Origin: Thermoproteota archaeon
GTDB taxonomy: Archaea; Asgardarchaeota; Jordiarchaeia; Jordiarchaeales; Freyrarchaeaceae
DNA length: 55,167 bases
Reading direction: 5' to 3'
Assembly (NCBI GenBank): GCA_029258835.1
Contig: JAPDJY010000050.1
Span: forward strand, 1-55,167
Shown here: positions 13,106-19,599 of the stretch, one piece after another
How the letters are laid out: the number at the start of each line of letters is the position of its first letter
Position numbering within the stretch: position 1 is the first letter of the stretch
Notes under the pieces: model-generated
Told to the model about the DNA's origin: nothing
Database searches by the model: none
What the model saw: the letters and a program-made list of their open reading frames with translations, nothing else
Position numbers and translations under genes: made by a program

Positions 13106-13999
13106 CTACGTTTCAACTCGGAAATATACCTCTCCCTCCCTTTTAACCTTGCCTTTTCTCTCAAGCTCTTCTAAATGCTTTTCAATCATGACCTTTTCCC
13201 AGTACCTTAAAAGCGGCTCAGCGTAGGGGAAACCCCCGTAGATGGGGGCAGCGTCAACGAGCTGCTCGATGCTTCGACCTCTTCCAAGAAGCCTGAAGAT
13301 CCTCTCACTTCTTTCATCAATCTTCATTTGGAAAGCGTCGAACTCTGCCTCCAAGTCCCCCACAACCACCCCCCTATGGCCTGAAACAACGATCCTTGGC
13401 CTTAAAGACTTAATTCGCTCTATGGACCTCCTCGTCTCCTCTATGCTAGACTCCCTGTGACCGTACCATGGGCCGAAGGAGGTGAGATCATAGTCAAATG
13501 AGAAGAGTATCCTCTCATTGGGCTCGTAGAAGCAGTAATGATCGTGCGTGTGTCCGGGAGTGTGAATGGGTAAAAGTACTGTGTCCCCAAACTTGAACAC
13601 CGTTTTCTCATTGTAGCTCTCCGTCGGCCTACAGTTCTTAATCCCCATCACTTTCGTCACGAATCCTATCCAGTACTCTGCCAGCCACCCTGGCTCGGTA
13701 AACCTTTCAGACAACGCCTTTAAGTCTCCGCTCGTAGGAAATCCTTCCTCTGGAACGTAGATCGGCTTACCCTTAAAAAGCCAGTTTCCAGCTGAGTGGT
13801 CTGGGTGGGTATGCGAGTTAATGACTAGGTCAACGTCGTACTTCTTCCTAAGTTTCCTTAGGACGTCCACGCCACACCCGGTGTCGATCAAAACCTTAAC
13901 CTCGTCGAGTATGAGGATTGAGAAAGAATAAGGAAACCTTCCTCCGCCTTTCCCCTTAACCAAGTATATGTTATCTGTTACCTCCCTCACCTTCTCCAA
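13106..13999 (-). CDS. MBL-fold metallo-hydrolase
   Basis: SHTHPDH, TPGHT, SGH; TTG 13999 after GGAGG; paralog of 25487..26395. Confidence 0.88.
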   Translation of the reverse strand: MEKVREVTDNIYLVKGKGGGRFPYSFSILILDEVKVLIDTGCGVDVLRKLRKKYDVDLVINSHTHPDHSAGNWLFKGKPIYVPEEGFPTSGDLKALSERFTEPGWLAEYWIGFVTKVMGIKNCRPTESYNEKTVFKFGDTVLLPIHTPGHTHDHYCFYEPNERILFSFDYDLTSFGPWYGHRESSIEETRRSIERIKSLRPRIVVSGHRGVVVGDLEAEFDAFQMKIDERSERIFRLLGRGRSIEQLVDAAPIYGGFPYAEPLLRYWEKVMIEKHLEELERKGKVKREGEVYFRVET

Positions 14000-14227
14000 A
14001 CCTCCATGAACAGCTAAGCTACTTCCAACAGTCAAACAGCACTTAAAACTATTCATCTAGGTGAAGCGCTGGGAACTGTGAAACTAGAGGATTCGAAGGA
14101 GGTTAACCAGAAAGGCTTTTAACGAAGGCTGACTCGCCTAAAGGCGCAGCCTCCAGCCTACGCGTGGAAGGAATAGAGAAGCAGATCGGTTCTTCACGTC
14201 TGTCCCCCGTTGCAACAGTCTGACAGC

Positions 14228-14351
14228 TAACGTGTACTCCTAACCGTGAAGAAAATAGTCTTAACCCGTCCTCCTCCAGCATCCTTAAGGCTTCCATTAA
14301 GCAGTACTCGGTTGCACCCTTCCTAGGGCTTCCACAGATTCCAACGGTCAT
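14228..14351 (-). pseudogene. Iron-sulfur flavoprotein / NADPH-FMN reductase N-terminal remnant
   Basis: MTVGICGSPRKGATEYCLMEALRMLEEDG, then a frameshift to VKTIFFTVR and a stop; downstream Cys motif absent. Confidence 0.65.
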
Positions 14352-14621
14352 GCTAGCACCAAAAGACAGGAAGAAGACGCTGAAATATAAACATGGCCAT
14401 CGCCTCTCGGAAGGTAACCGTTTAACCATCAAGGGCCACTTGAACCCTGTAAACTGCGGTGAGGGTAATAAAGGAATCCTCCACCACCTGTTCGGAGCCC
14501 TTAGAAAAAACGGTTCCTCATCAGTTGCATGCTGGCGTGGGTAAGCAGTCGATGATTCCCTTCAAATCCTGCGGGAGCGTACGCCAGCCCCTTCCTCCGT
14601 TCACCTACCCGGTAAGTTTAA

Positions 14622-16124
14622 CTAGTACTCTATGCCTCTCCTCGCCTGCACACCCTCCCTGTACGGGTGCTTCACCTCCCTCATCTCCGTGACCAAGTTC
14701 GCTGCTTTGAGCAACTCCTTTGGAGCTTTCCTCCCTGTCAGGACAACTTCAACGTTCTCCGGCTTACCTCTTAAAATGTCCAAGACGTCGCTCAGGCTGA
14801 TGAGCTTCAAGTGAAGCGCTAGGTTCACCTCGTCCAGTATCACAATGTCATACTCCCCGCTCATTACGGCGTCCCTCGCCTTCTCGAGAGCCTTCCTAGC
14901 CTGCTCGTAGTCCTCCTCTGAAGGGCTTCCAAGTATGAAGCGGCCGAGCCCGTAAGCTTCAAGGTGGAGGTTTGGAAGGTGCTTCGAGGAGTAGAGCTCC
15001 CCATAGTCAAACCCTCCCTTAATGAACTGGACCACGCATACCTTCAACCCTCTCCCTACCGCCCTGAGGGCGAGGCCGAACGCAGCTGTAGTCTTCCCCT
15101 TCCCATCACCAGTGTAAACTTGGATCAGCCCCCTCTCTAACCTGTGGCGTGGCCCTGGTGAAACGTACTCGGGCTTCACGACCTTGGCGAATATCATCTC
15201 CGCCGCGGTGGCAGGATCCAGCTCCCCCTTCGCCACCCCCTCCTCGACCTCCCTGAACTCCACCTCGTCCATGAGGGATAAAATCTTCTCCTCTAGGAGG
15301 TCCCTGAGGGCGTCCAAGAGCTCATCCCTCCTCGGCTTCATGACCTCCAGAGGGTACCCCTCAGAAGCTAGGAACTCCCTGTGCTCCTCTATCTTCTGGA
15401 GGAGCTCGTCCACGCCTTCCCCTCTTAAAGCCACCGTTTTAACCACGGGAGGCCTCCACTTCCTCGGGGCGCCTAAGTCTAAGATTTCCTCTATGTCATT
15501 AACTGTTTTATCGGCGTTTCCGACATCGGCCTTGTTCACCACGAAGATGTCCGCTATCTCCATTACCCCCGCCTTCAAGGCCTGGATTTCATCCCCCAAG
15601 ACGGGGGGGAGGACTAGTATGACCGTCTGCGCTATCCCCACGATGTCAACCTCGGACTGTCCAGCTCCAACAGTTTCGATGATTACATAGTCCTTGCCTG
15701 AAGCGTCAAGTATCTTCGCCGCGTTGCTGGTAGCCCTCGCAAGCCCTCCCCTGTCACCCCTAGTTGACATGCTTCTTATGAAAACTCCTTCGTCGAGCGT
15801 TAACCCCTGCATTCTAACTCTGTCCCCTAGGAGGGCGCCGCCCGAGAACGGACTGCTGGGGTCCACGGCAATGATTCCAACCGTTTTACCTCTCCGCCTC
15901 AGCTCCTTAGCCATAGCCGCTATCAAAGTACTCTTCCCAGATCCCGGCGGCCCCGTGACACCTATTATGTGAGCCCTACCAGTGTGGGGGGCGATAAGCC
16001 TAGTTATAACGTGCGCCTCTGCAGGGTTGTCCTCGACTATGCTTATCAGCCTGGCTATAGCCCTCTTGCTACCCTTTAAAGCCTCCTCAACCAGCCTACC
16101 TCTCTCTACATCATCTACAATAAT
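14622..16124 (-). CDS. meaB: MeaB GTPase - cob(I)alamin adenosyltransferase (CobA/BtuR/CobO-type) fusion
   Basis: Frame open upstream of the TTG at 15926: RAIARLISIVE, IGVTGPPGSGKST, AVDPSSPFSGGALLGDRVRM, ETVGAGQSE, NKAD; then GLIQVYTGDGKGKTTAAFG, QFIKG, ILDE, VLTGR, ARRGIEY. Start inferred at ATT 16124. Confidence 0.9.
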   Translation of the reverse strand: MIVDDVERGRLVEEALKGSKRAIARLISIVEDNPAEAHVITRLIAPHTGRAHIIGVTGPPGSGKSTLIAAMAKELRRRGKTVGIIAVDPSSPFSGGALLGDRVRMQGLTLDEGVFIRSMSTRGDRGGLARATSNAAKILDASGKDYVIIETVGAGQSEVDIVGIAQTVILVLPPVLGDEIQALKAGVMEIADIFVVNKADVGNADKTVNDIEEILDLGAPRKWRPPVVKTVALRGEGVDELLQKIEEHREFLASEGYPLEVMKPRRDELLDALRDLLEEKILSLMDEVEFREVEEGVAKGELDPATAAEMIFAKVVKPEYVSPGPRHRLERGLIQVYTGDGKGKTTAAFGLALRAVGRGLKVCVVQFIKGGFDYGELYSSKHLPNLHLEAYGLGRFILGSPSEEDYEQARKALEKARDAVMSGEYDIVILDEVNLALHLKLISLSDVLDILRGKPENVEVVLTGRKAPKELLKAANLVTEMREVKHPYREGVQARRGIEY

Positions 16125-16141
16125 GGACGCCTCCTTCCAGC

Positions 16142-16555
16142 TTACAGGCTTCTCTTAAGGTTCCTCTTTATGAACTCTATTACCTCCTCAGTCATCGTCC
16201 CGGGACCAAACACTTCTGCGATCCCTACCTCCTTAAGGCGGGGCACGTCGTCGTCCGGAATTATCCCTCCCGCCAGGACTAGAACGTCGTCTAACCCATT
16301 CCTCTTCATGAGCTCCATAACCTTGGGAAGCAGGGTCATGTGGGCTCCTGATAGGATGCTGAGGCAGAGAACGTCCACGTCTTCCTGAACGACTGTTTCA
16401 ACTATCTGCTCGGGTGTCTGCCTAAGCCCAGTATATATCACCTCGAACCCGGCGTCTCTAAGCGCTCCTGCTATAACCTTCGCCCCCCTGTCATGGGAGT
16501 CAAGCCCCGGCTTGGCGACGAGCACCCTAATCCTCCTCTTGCTCATCTTAACCAC
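16142..16555 (-). CDS. Acyl-CoA mutase small (cobalamin-binding) subunit
   Basis: [13 protein letters not shown] (DxHxxG), SILSGAH, GGIIP, FGPG. Confidence 0.95.
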
Positions 16556-16572: not shown

Positions 16573-18252
16573 CTAAAAGACTATGACTTCTTGGTGCTCC
16601 CCGTAAACCTCCTTTAGGGTGCCTATTATCTCTCCTATGCTAGCGTACACTTTAACCGCCTCCAAGATATATGGCACGAGGTTTTCACCTTTCTCCGCAG
16701 CCCTCCTCAAGTCCGAGAGCCTTTCCTCCACCTTCACGTTGTCCCTCTCCGCCTTAACCCTCCTTAGCCTTTCAACCTGCTTCCTCTCAACGTCCTCCCC
16801 TATCTTCAGTATGGGCACCTTAATCTTTTCGTCTAAGGCGTACTTGTTGACCCCGACTATGACCCTTTCCTCCTTCTCCACCTCCTGCTGGTACTTCCTC
16901 GCGCTCTCAGCTATCTCCTTCTGGAAGTACCCTCTCTTTATGCACTCTATGACTCCCCCCATGCTCTCTATCCTGTCAAGGTACTTTAGGGTTTCCTCAA
17001 CCATCTTATCAGTTAACCACTCAACGTAGTACGACCCCCCGAGGGGGTCTACCGTGTTGCACACACCGCTCTCATAAGCTATTATCTGCTGGGTTCTAAG
17101 AGATATCCTTACGGCCTCCTCGGTTGGAAGCGCTAGAGCTTCATCGTACGAGTTCGTATGCAGGGACTGGGTTCCGCCGAGCACCGCGGCCAGAGCTTGA
17201 ATTGTAACCCTTATAATGTTGTTCAGGGGTTGCTGAGCTGTTAGGGTACACCCTGAGGTCTGAACGTGCATCCTAAGCCACATGGATCGCTCCTTCTTAG
17301 CGTTGAATCGCTCCTTCATGAGCATCGCCCAAACCTTCCTCGCAGCCCTAAACTTTGCGATCTCCTCGAAGAAGTCGTTGTGCGAGGCGAAGAAGAATGA
17401 AAGGCGGGGGGCGAACTCGTCGACATCTAACCCCCTCTCCAACGTGGATTCAACGTACGTTATCCCGTCAGCTATGGTGAACGCCAGCTCTTGGAGGGCG
17501 GTAGCCCCAGCCTCCCTTATGTGGTACCCGCTAATGCTTATGGGGTTCCACTTTGGCATGTGCTTGGCGCAGAACTCGATCAAATCCACTGAAAGCTTCA
17601 ACGCAGGCTCAGGAGGGAAGATGCAGAGCTTCTGAGCTATAAACTCCTTCAAGTTGTCGTTCTGTGTCGTCCCTCCGAGAGCCTCCATTGGCACACCTTG
17701 CTTCTCGCCGACCGCTATGTACATTGCTAAGAGGACTGACGCGGGCATGTTTATAGTCATGGAAGTCGTAACCTTATCTAGGGGGATCCCCTCAAACAGG
17801 ATCTCCATGTCCCTCAGCGTTGAAACGGCGACACCACACTTCCCAACCTCTCCCGCTGACATCGGATGATCAGAGTCCAAGCCCATTATGGTCGGGTAGT
17901 CGAAGGCTATGCTCAGCCCCGTCTCACCCTCGCTTAGAAGATACTTGAAACGCTTGTTCGTGTCCTCCGCCGTCCCAAAACCAGAAAACTGCCTCATCGT
18001 CCAAAGCCTCCCCCTGTACATCGTGGCATGGATCCCCCTGGTGAACGGGTACTCCCCTGGGAACCCTAAGTCCTTCAGGTAGTTTAGCTTCGCCGTGTCC
18101 TCCGGAGTGTACACGTGCTTCACATCGAACCCCGATGAAACCTTAAAAGACTTCTTCCTCTCGGGAAGCTTTGCAACCCACTTATTCAACGTCTCCTTCT
18201 CCCATTTCTCCCTAGCTGCCCGTATCTCAGCTAGGTCTCCTTCATCAACCAT
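16573..18252 (-). CDS. Acyl-CoA mutase large subunit, isobutyryl-CoA mutase-like
   Basis: PGEYPFTRG, WTMRQFSGFG, QNDNLKEFIAQK, SISGYHIREAG, GGTQSLHTN; ATG 18252. Confidence 0.93.
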   Translation of the reverse strand: MVDEGDLAEIRAAREKWEKETLNKWVAKLPERKKSFKVSSGFDVKHVYTPEDTAKLNYLKDLGFPGEYPFTRGIHATMYRGRLWTMRQFSGFGTAEDTNKRFKYLLSEGETGLSIAFDYPTIMGLDSDHPMSAGEVGKCGVAVSTLRDMEILFEGIPLDKVTTSMTINMPASVLLAMYIAVGEKQGVPMEALGGTTQNDNLKEFIAQKLCIFPPEPALKLSVDLIEFCAKHMPKWNPISISGYHIREAGATALQELAFTIADGITYVESTLERGLDVDEFAPRLSFFFASHNDFFEEIAKFRAARKVWAMLMKERFNAKKERSMWLRMHVQTSGCTLTAQQPLNNIIRVTIQALAAVLGGTQSLHTNSYDEALALPTEEAVRISLRTQQIIAYESGVCNTVDPLGGSYYVEWLTDKMVEETLKYLDRIESMGGVIECIKRGYFQKEIAESARKYQQEVEKEERVIVGVNKYALDEKIKVPILKIGEDVERKQVERLRRVKAERDNVKVEERLSDLRRAAEKGENLVPYILEAVKVYASIGEIIGTLKEVYGEHQEVIVF

Positions 18253-18556: not shown

Positions 18557-19090
18557 GTGGATGTGAACGCTTTATTTAAGATCAGTTATGGAATGTACGT
18601 TGTCACGTCCAAGATGAATGGCAGGGTTAACGGCCAAATCGCTAACACGTTCATCCAGGTTACCGCGGAGCCATTAATGGTTGCAGTATGCATCAACAAG
18701 CTAAACTTAACTCACGAGTTCATACAGAAAAGTAGGGTTTTCGCGGTTTCGATCCTATCGGAGGATACACCTTTACAGTTCATCGGCAGGTTCGGGTTCA
18801 AGACTGGTAGAACCTTCAATAAGTTTGAAGGAGTAAACTTTAGGGTTGGAGTAACGGGAGCCCCTATAATTCTCGAGAACACCATAGCGTATGTGGAAGC
18901 AGAAGTGGTCAAAGAGTGCGACATCAAGACACACACCATGTTCATCGGAAAGGTCGTCGACGCAGGCATGATCAAAGAAGGTGAACCAATGACCTACGCA
19001 TACTATCATACCGTGAAGAAGGGTAAAACGCCGAAAGCCGCCTCAACGTATGTAGGCGAGCCGCCTCCAACCAACCCGTACCACACATAG
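18557..19090 (+). CDS. Flavin reductase family protein
   Basis: ALFKISYGMYVVTS, NGQIANT, FGFKTGR, THTMFIG, MTYAYYH. Confidence 0.88.
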   Translation: MDVNALFKISYGMYVVTSKMNGRVNGQIANTFIQVTAEPLMVAVCINKLNLTHEFIQKSRVFAVSILSEDTPLQFIGRFGFKTGRTFNKFEGVNFRVGVTGAPIILENTIAYVEAEVVKECDIKTHTMFIGKVVDAGMIKEGEPMTYAYYHTVKKGKTPKAASTYVGEPPPTNPYHT

Positions 19091-19221: not shown

Positions 19222-19599
19222 ATGACGGAAAGAAGGCAAATCTACAAGTGCAATGTTTGTGGAAGCATAGTTGAAGTTTTACATTCCGGAGTAGGCCGGC
19301 TGGTGTGCTGCGGTAAACCCATGGAGCTGCTAGTGGAGAAAACAGAAGAAGCTGGCGGGGAGAAGCATGTCCCTGTCGTGGAAAGAACCGAAGCTGGAAT
19401 AAAGGTTAAAGTGGGCTCTGTCCCCCATCCAATGACGGAGGATCACTACATAGAATGGATCGAAATATCTGCCAACGGTGAAGTGCACAGAAAATACTTG
19501 AAGCCAGGTGATACACCTGAAGCTGAATTCCCCGTTCAGGCAGAAGAAATAGAAGCAAGAGAACACTGTAGCATTCATGGCCTCTGGAAGTCCAGGTAG
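19222..19599 (+). CDS. dfx: Desulfoferrodoxin (2Fe superoxide reductase)
   Basis: YKCNVCG..CCG centre I; [23 protein letters not shown] centre II. Confidence 0.95.

Follow-up and report, generated by a model that had tools for sequence, protein, structure and literature searches.

Introduction

Why would an archaeon encode a B12-loading G-protein and a corrinoid adenosyltransferase as one polypeptide? The question is raised by a gene in a 55,167-nt stretch of DNA from a Thermoproteota archaeon (assembly GCA_029258835.1, contig JAPDJY010000050.1, positions 1 to 55,167; class Jordiarchaeia in the GTDB lineage), referred to below as the window. The gene joins a MeaB-type GTPase in frame to a CobA/BtuR-type adenosyltransferase and follows the two subunit genes of an acyl-CoA mutase. 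From sequence comparison and by analogy with the parent families, we consider it likely that the product is a bifunctional B12-handling protein dedicated to the adjacent two-subunit mutase.

The route of the 1.3- to 1.6-kDa cofactor between adenosyltransferase, G-protein and mutase is a standing problem in B12 trafficking. The adenosyltransferase makes adenosylcobalamin (AdoCbl), and MeaB (MMAA) acts as the gate both for its transfer to the mutase and for taking cob(II)alamin back (PMC10481361, PMC10356863). The G-protein metallochaperones are typically stand-alone proteins, with IcmF as the notable exception (PMC10481361, 2023). A 2025 paper describes the three-protein hand-over complex as hard to capture, and IcmF was chosen there since its fusion lowers the number of partners (PMC12585393).

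Results

One open reading frame encodes a MeaB domain, a linker and a CobA domain

The original prediction described a single uninterrupted frame with a complete MeaB domain, a short linker and a complete CobA/BtuR domain, and Pfam, NCBIfam and the sequence motifs all agreed with this description. The gene is on the minus strand; a reading of 14622 to 16124 on the plus strand was ruled out by its many stop codons. On the minus strand, no stop interrupts the frame between 16154 and the stop codon at 14622 to 14624, and its length from stop to stop is 510 codons. In Pfam, PF03308 (MeaB) matched residues 34 to 293 of this frame with an E value of 4.7e-90 and 301.7 bits (cutoff, 23.1 bits), and PF02572 (CobA_CobO_BtuR) matched residues 340 to 510 over positions 1 to 172 of its 172-position profile with an E value of 1.7e-64 and 217.6 bits (cutoff, 25.7 bits). 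The NCBIfam equivalog models for MeaB (TIGR00750, 346.8 bits against a cutoff of 240.75) and cobA (TIGR00708, 201.1 bits against 167.75) were both matched as well. The MeaB half contains the Walker A motif GPPGSGKST, the NKAD motif and C-terminal helices that run to DPATAAEMIF, while the CobA half has the family motifs from YTGDGKGKTT to RRGIEY. The junction DNA between them, which encodes the linker KPEYVSPGPRHRLE, is free of stop codons. Table 1 gives the coordinates.

Table 1. Features of the fusion gene and its neighbors in the window
Feature	Position	Strand	Basis or remark
MeaB-CobA fusion gene	14622..16124	-	500 codons plus stop at 14622-14624; open frame, Pfam, NCBIfam
MeaB G-domain: Walker A, switch I-III, NKAD	15276..16055	-	PF03308, motif columns, solved chains
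MeaB C-terminal helical arm, residues 284-316	15177..15275	-	structural alignment, model helices
Linker KPEYVSPGPRHRLE, residues 317-330	15135..15176	-	poorly conserved columns, low pLDDT
CobA/BtuR/CobO-type ATP:corrinoid adenosyltransferase domain	14625..15137	-	PF02572, alignment to Salmonella CobA
Probable noncanonical ATT start codon	16122..16124	-	second assembly identical; public record starts here
GGAGG, Shine-Dalgarno-like motif	16130..16134	-	5 nt upstream of ATT, direct reading
Mutase B12-binding small subunit	16142..16555	-	PF02310; TIGR00640, 187.8 bits; expected docking partner of the MeaB domain
Acyl-CoA mutase large subunit	16573..18252	-	PF01642, E = 1e-228; isobutyryl-CoA-mutase-type residues
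Flavin reductase	18557..19090	+	PF01613; candidate electron source for Co(II) to Co(I)
Small open reading frame, 109 codons, TTG start	14103..14432	-	between fusion gene and beta-lactamase-fold gene
Metallo-beta-lactamase-fold gene	13106..14056	-	PF00753; conserved downstream neighbor

We then compared 22 fused proteins that share 45 to 74% identity. In their MeaB domains, the invariant columns include those of the Walker A motif (G61, G63, K64 and S65), switch I (D88...R104 and M105), switch II (E150, T151, G153, G155, Q156 and S157), the MeaB-specific switch III with the pattern GDExQxxKxG (G177, D178, Q181, K184 and G186) and the NKxD motif (N197, K198 and D200). In their CobA halves, the P-loop (Y337 to T345), the LDE and TGR motifs and the C-terminal KHP...GIEY are invariant. 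Both P-loops and the NKxD motif are kept in all 25 representatives of the fused clusters. The comparisons showed that, as judged from its sequence, the gene is intact and conserved and that both halves keep the nucleotide-binding motifs of their families.

The MeaB half aligned to the solved MeaB-family chains 6CUM, 3MD0, 2QM7 and 8DPB and to MMAA (2WWW), and the alignment to the solved homologues 6CUM and 3MD0 extended to about residue 312 to 314. The CobA half aligned to residues 25 to 196 of Salmonella CobA (1G5R/4HUT) with an E value of 1.5e-27. An AlphaFold2 model with a mean predicted local distance difference test score (pLDDT) of 76 has two folded domains, and its pLDDT falls below 50 at linker residues 317 to 325, in the switch loops and in the C-terminal 16 residues. 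Since the low values at residues 317 to 325 lie between two confidently folded domains, the tether is predicted to be flexible. The model places helices at residues 262 to 285, 288 to 298 and 304 to 315 in the MeaB arm, which is the dimerization region in solved MeaB structures. Both parent families are homodimers, so that the fusion protein is also expected to be a dimer. A homodimer prediction with two copies of the fusion protein gave a median of 0.36 against a mark of 0.42, with controls at 0.00, and was counted neither way.

The start codon is noncanonical and the junction is not an assembly artifact

No ATG, GTG or TTG codon lies between the TAA that closes the frame upstream (16157 to 16155) and the P-loop, and a gene boundary at 16124 therefore needs an ATT start. 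The first canonical start is the TTG at 15926, just after the Walker A motif, and its use would remove that motif; because of this codon, several gene callers gave products of 430 to 434 amino acids (aa). In a second assembly (L089) the DNA is identical at the start, and the public record (P0316) calls a 500-aa protein, M-IVDD, from the ATT codon. Relatives at 73 to 74% identity have an ATG at the equivalent position. The ATT at 16124 is likely the start codon, with the CTG at 16094 as the alternative.

The lack of a canonical start before Walker A and the shorter gene calls could also mean that the gene is not expressed as annotated, either because it is decaying, because it yields a product without the P-loop from TTG 15926 or because the assembly is in error. 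We consider this very improbable, since about 65 conserved codons before TTG 15926 are open and match relatives with an ATG start residue for residue, the GGAGG motif lies just before the ATT, the same DNA is found in another assembly, the independent runs have no indels and all motifs are intact.

The junction itself is no assembly artifact. An independent DNA run yielded a contig of 8,287 nt that reaches across positions 14500 to 16300 with nine substitutions and no indels, and a second DNA run covers 14791 to 15298, including the junction, with no differences. A stop codon or indel at the junction was looked for in the independent assemblies and runs, and none was found there. Members of the same protein cluster are on at least five separate contigs (NCBI, ENA, JGI and Logan). 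About 19 runs from 18 studies contain at least part of the stretch, and the runs that contain much of it are hydrothermal-vent and sediment metagenomes.

The fusion gene follows an isobutyryl-CoA-mutase-like mutase

The predicted position of the fusion gene, directly downstream of both mutase subunits, was borne out. The genes for the large subunit, the small subunit and the fusion are on one strand with 17-nt gaps between them, and this gene order is kept in Jordarchaeales and Bathyarchaeota.

We then analyzed the substrate-site residues of the large subunit by alignment to 4R3U, 2XIJ and 1REQ. The subunit has RQFSGF (Phe), KEFIAQK (Gln) and GLSIAFD. The Phe and Gln stand where methylmalonyl-CoA mutases (MCM) have Tyr89 and Arg207, the human enzyme having RQYAGF and KEFMVRN. 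An Ala stands where 2-hydroxyisobutyryl-CoA mutase, with RQIAGF and GISTDFD, has Asp117. Judged by these residues, the client mutase resembles isobutyryl-CoA mutase more than methylmalonyl-CoA mutase. The same Phe/Gln pair was found in mutases beside meaB-cobA at nine other loci from archaea and bacteria.

A second large subunit is encoded on another contig of the assembly (C43, L102:6253-7917). It has the canonical Tyr/Arg pair, in RQYAGF and KEYIARG, and its gene sits among thiolase and DUF35 genes without a small subunit or MeaB of its own. The search of the assembly gave a single B12-binding small subunit of the mutase type, and therefore the small subunit and the fusion protein may serve both large subunits, that of the Phe/Gln type and that of the Tyr/Arg type.

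No PduO-type adenosyltransferase and no markers of cobamide synthesis were found in the assembly

In the 2.72-Mb assembly, which is 94.7% complete, the one MeaB found is the fused one, and two CobA domains were found. No PduO-type adenosyltransferase (PF01923) was found in the assembly, while the controls for this search were positive in 9 of 14 genomes. A search of the same 94.7%-complete assembly for CbiC, CobS and CbiB found none of them. On this evidence the organism probably scavenges complete cobamide and relies on it, and the CobA domain probably acts on the finished, scavenged compound.

The assembly encodes three AdoCbl-dependent enzymes. One of them is NrdJ (L008:2-2335 on contig C57), an intein-containing, AdoCbl-dependent ribonucleotide reductase that scored 640 bits with TIGR02504 (cutoff, 400 bits). 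The second CobA, a divergent one (L008:2348-2872), lies 13 nt downstream of nrdJ. Counting the fusion, the mutase locus and the nrdJ locus each have an adenosyltransferase gene beside them.

In Salmonella, the housekeeping role belongs to CobA-type enzymes, and the CobA half of the fusion scores as an ordinary cobA equivalog with TIGR00708. The CobA domain could thus be a general housekeeping corrinoid adenosyltransferase whose place behind meaB is incidental. This explanation seems improbable to us, because the second CobA lies next to an AdoCbl-dependent NrdJ, because the search of the 94.7%-complete assembly gave no corrin-ring or nucleotide-loop genes that a housekeeping enzyme could serve, and because the mutases beside meaB-cobA are of the Phe/Gln type at all 10 loci.

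The fusion is a recurrent derivative of a conserved meaB-cobA pair

About 26 fused clusters at 90% identity came out of a protein search. Where the source was named, it was Candidatus Jordarchaeales or Bathyarchaeota, and the database names of the proteins were MeaB or cob(I)yrinic acid a,c-diamide adenosyltransferase. The fusion is kept at 45 to 74% identity across Jordarchaeales and Bathyarchaeia. Close relatives are not all split, since named Jordarchaeales relatives at 73 to 74% identity encode the same 500-aa fusion while the sister family has separate genes. Among 50%-identity representatives, one fused protein (P0019) was present in the best 150.

In the window's class, 11 genomes were examined. 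One further genus of the window's family was searched and gave a contig-end fragment and a truncated derivative (P0324 of genome G004). The G004 locus L095:7001-7720 has lost the mutase genes along with the MeaB G-domain, and a 239-aa protein that matches residues 262 to 500 of the fusion (MeaB arm, linker and CobA) is encoded directly after the flavin reductase gene; it looks like a deletion derivative. In the sister family, meaB and cobA are about 30 to 90 nt apart in four of six genomes and are in frame with a single stop between them in two of the six.

For the Bathyarchaeia, 301 genomes were sampled and the counts were made by hand. Only 2 of the 301 have a true fusion, 9 have one in-frame stop inside the linker, and about 29 have adjacent genes in another frame, as with the 14-nt overlap in L009; the genes are 1.8 kb apart in 1 genome and on different contigs in about 9. 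Adjacency of meaB and cobA is thus the rule in the sampled Bathyarchaeia and in the sister family, and in these relatives the stop codon or the gene overlap falls at the position of the linker. The one-stop forms include L097, L098 and L100 from Bathyarchaeia and L101 from the sister family, and the stop is TAG, TAA or TGA.

Separate cobA, meaB and mutase genes also cluster at no fewer than three bacterial loci, in at least one member each of the Bacillota, the deltaproteobacteria and the unclassified bacteria. In a contig search with the fused alignment, the full-length matches among the matches listed were adjacent pairs only (L009, L010, L059 and L082); this search carries no weight on fused forms in bacteria.

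To place the fused forms among their relatives, we used trees of both domains. Fused and stand-alone forms are intermingled in the tree of the CobA domain, and an approximately unbiased (AU) test rejected the grouping of all fused forms in one clade (p = 0.004). The tree of the MeaB domain requires three or more state changes and contains a fused-only clade of 16 clusters (starred). By both trees, the fused state changed at least two to three times, whether it arose or reverted. The interleaved trees and the conserved gene pair together indicate that the fusion derives from the meaB-cobA pair, that it recurs and is easy to reach, and that it is at times kept for long; it arose from the neighboring genes by loss of the stop codon or the overlap between them. 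The window's fusion is 55 to 57% identical to proteins from Bathyarchaeia versus 47 to 48% to those from the sister family. These values raise the possibility of a transfer of the operon between Bathyarchaeia and the window's Jordarchaeia family, but the deep branches of both trees, which were quick ones, are weak or long.

The repeated changes of state bear on whether the tether matters at all. It could be a near-neutral accident, in which both domains are active and the tether adds no mechanism, AdoCbl being released or passed on as in the split systems. The 2 fused forms against about 38 adjacent pairs in the Bathyarchaeia sample fit such an accident, as do the repeated flips of the fused state and a linker that is short, unconserved and predicted to be flexible. 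However, fused-only clades persist down to 45% identity, including the 16-cluster clade of the MeaB tree, which argues that the fusion is maintained rather than transient, and the close pairing of meaB and cobA, which extends over two archaeal classes and some bacteria, by itself implies that the two are functionally coupled. On balance we regard a near-neutral accident as rather unlikely, though less so than a housekeeping role of the CobA domain.

Neighboring genes

The flavin reductase gene adjoins the operon in the window, in the second assembly (L089) and at the Jordarchaeales loci L093, L094 and L095. Among solved structures the product matches the Archaeoglobus protein 1I0R best (E = 1.5e-61) and is distantly related to CobR (3CB0), a corrin reductase (E = 2e-7). 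A desulfoferrodoxin gene (19222 to 19596, plus strand) comes after it. That the flavin reductase reduces Co(II) for adenosylation is plausible, but the case for this role is weak because the gene also adjoins the desulfoferrodoxin gene.

Downstream of the fusion, the metallo-beta-lactamase-fold gene is also found after the fusion in L089 and L093 (Jordarchaeales) and in L090 (Bathyarchaeota). The small open reading frame between the two had no Pfam match; in L089 a 99-aa gene is called at its place. Thiolase and DUF35 (zf-ChsH2/OB) genes lie nearby in several of these fusion loci. An Rfam scan of the whole window gave no family at the gathering score and no cobalamin riboswitch, and a scan for bacterial-type promoters and terminators gave nothing above shuffled controls.

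Discussion

Taken together, the intact frame, the mutase operon and the conserved gene pair suggest how a bifunctional protein dedicated to the adjacent mutase could work. The C-terminal CobA domain would bind scavenged cob(II)alamin and ATP and, after a one-electron reduction, perhaps by reduced flavin from the neighboring reductase, would make AdoCbl. The N-terminal MeaB domain would dock on the B12-binding subunit of the mutase, and its GTP state would open that subunit, as in the studied MeaB/MMAA systems. Hydrolysis of GTP would then act as the gate through which AdoCbl enters and inactive cob(II)alamin goes back to the adenosyltransferase. The flexible tether of about 14 residues would hold the donor and the acceptor of a scarce cofactor at a 1:1 ratio and at high local concentration. 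The activities, the dimeric state and the direct hand-over are those that we infer by analogy with the parent families.

The original prediction also pointed to a CobA-type enzyme as the direct donor of AdoCbl. Comparative support for this proposal came from the adjacency of meaB and cobA, the recurrent fusion and the absence from the assembly of a PduO-type enzyme and of the corrin markers searched for; the hand-over and its gating remain the inferred part.

Several points weigh against a dedicated bifunctional protein. To our knowledge, the only enzymes for which direct hand-over has been demonstrated are those of the PduO type, whose fold is unrelated. The start codon is noncanonical. Contigs from two metatranscriptome runs lie over 14500 to 14805, 15390 to 15637, 15896 to 16146 and 16104 to 16300; they cover the gene in part, none of them crosses the junction, and with DNA carry-over possible they give no claim of expression. 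The repeated switching between fused and split states, with its many one-stop forms, could mean that the fusion is nearly neutral. The flavin reductase may instead serve in oxidative-stress defense, as its desulfoferrodoxin neighbor suggests.

The remaining two points come from the comparison with Salmonella CobA. Residues 1 to 24 of that enzyme, which cap the active site of the neighboring subunit, are replaced in the fusion by the MeaB arm and the linker; stand-alone archaeal CobA relatives of 175 to 178 aa also have no long N terminus. In Salmonella CobA, F91 and W93 displace the lower ligand, which leaves Co(II) four-coordinate, and this pair has no one-to-one match in the fusion. The HMMER alignment places R, F and I opposite F91, T92 and W93. 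A near-invariant Phe (F396) is one position away, and a shift by one residue would match F91 and leave W93 without a counterpart.

In other respects the CobA half resembles the Salmonella enterica enzyme (BtuR/CobO; 1G5R, 1G64 and 4HUT), with which it shares the P-loop GxGKGKTT, FIKG, hhLDE, TGR and the C-terminal KH...GI(D/E)Y. The context differs, since the window's domain belongs to the operon of an AdoCbl client, with no corrin biosynthesis genes found, and not to a cob/cbi pathway.

The system can also be compared with that of MeaB/MMAA, a PduO-type adenosyltransferase (MMAB, or ATR of M. extorquens) and MCM. The two are alike in that a mutase, a G3E-family GTPase and an adenosyltransferase are encoded together, and the MeaB domain of the window keeps the Walker A motif, switches I to III, the NKxD motif and the C-terminal helical arm. 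The same logic of GTP-gated AdoCbl loading and cob(II)alamin off-loading would be expected (PMC10356863, PMC10481361). However, the adenosyltransferase in the window is of the CobA type with a P-loop fold rather than of the PduO type, it is covalently joined to the G-protein, and the mutase has Phe/Gln instead of Tyr/Arg.

IcmF is likewise a natural fusion with a MeaB-like G-domain in an AdoCbl mutase system, and the Phe/Gln residues of the mutase are common to both. IcmF carries its G-domain on the mutase and has a separate adenosyltransferase, whereas in the window the G-domain is joined to the adenosyltransferase and the mutase consists of two subunits. The NF045497 model of IcmF gave 380, 55 and 118 bits with the three window genes against a cutoff of 1500 bits, and the system is thus not IcmF.

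The closest counterparts are the split meaB-cobA pairs of Bathyarchaeia and the sister Jordarchaeia family. They are orthologous, with 47 to 72% identity per domain, have the same order of mutase large subunit, small subunit, meaB and cobA where the mutase lies in the fetched stretch, and have the same Phe/Gln residues. They differ in being two polypeptides, separated by an overlap in another frame or by one in-frame stop in the linker.

MeaB is also extended at its C terminus in other proteins. In a MeaB-Glyoxalase_4 group of 466 to 474 aa (P0142, P0161, P0165, P0183, P0185 and P0198), the added domain is a likely pathway partner, probably methylmalonyl-CoA epimerase, and in a MeaB-XdhC_C protein of 443 aa (P0239) it is a Rossmann domain. 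The other long MeaB proteins that were scanned had Glyoxalase_4, XdhC_C or no second domain at an E value of 1e-8 or below and no adenosyltransferase, in a scan that included no search aimed at MeaB-PduO.

A literature search that left out most subscription journals found no paper that describes the MeaB-CobA architecture. The fusion proteins are already public under generic names. The fusion is a rearrangement of known parts rather than a system of a new kind, and for the most part its function can be predicted from those parts.

The fusion is a natural simplification complementary to IcmF, with the G-protein and the adenosyltransferase in one chain and the mutase in two small pieces. As a natural single-chain model, it could help to capture the elusive hand-over of the cofactor, and the overlapping, one-stop and fused versions of the gene pair would provide natural matched controls. 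Given the hydrothermal-vent and sediment sources, we would guess that the proteins may be thermostable and suited to structural work. The PduO class is the one studied in humans and Methylobacterium; the gene-fusion ("Rosetta stone") evidence suggests that MeaB can also have a client-dedicated partner of the CobA class.

A further and more tentative proposal, which we hold as possible but somewhat short of an even chance, is that CobA-type enzymes independently gained an escort function, handing over AdoCbl and taking back cob(II)alamin under MeaB gating. This partnership would have been welded several times in Jordarchaeales and Bathyarchaeia and, with the flavin reductase, would form a self-contained module for activation and repair. 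If the proposal is true, an archaeon apparently unable to make cobamide would have such a module for scavenged B12, and one small subunit and one MeaB-CobA protein might serve two large subunits, one isobutyryl-CoA-mutase-like and the other methylmalonyl-CoA-mutase-like.

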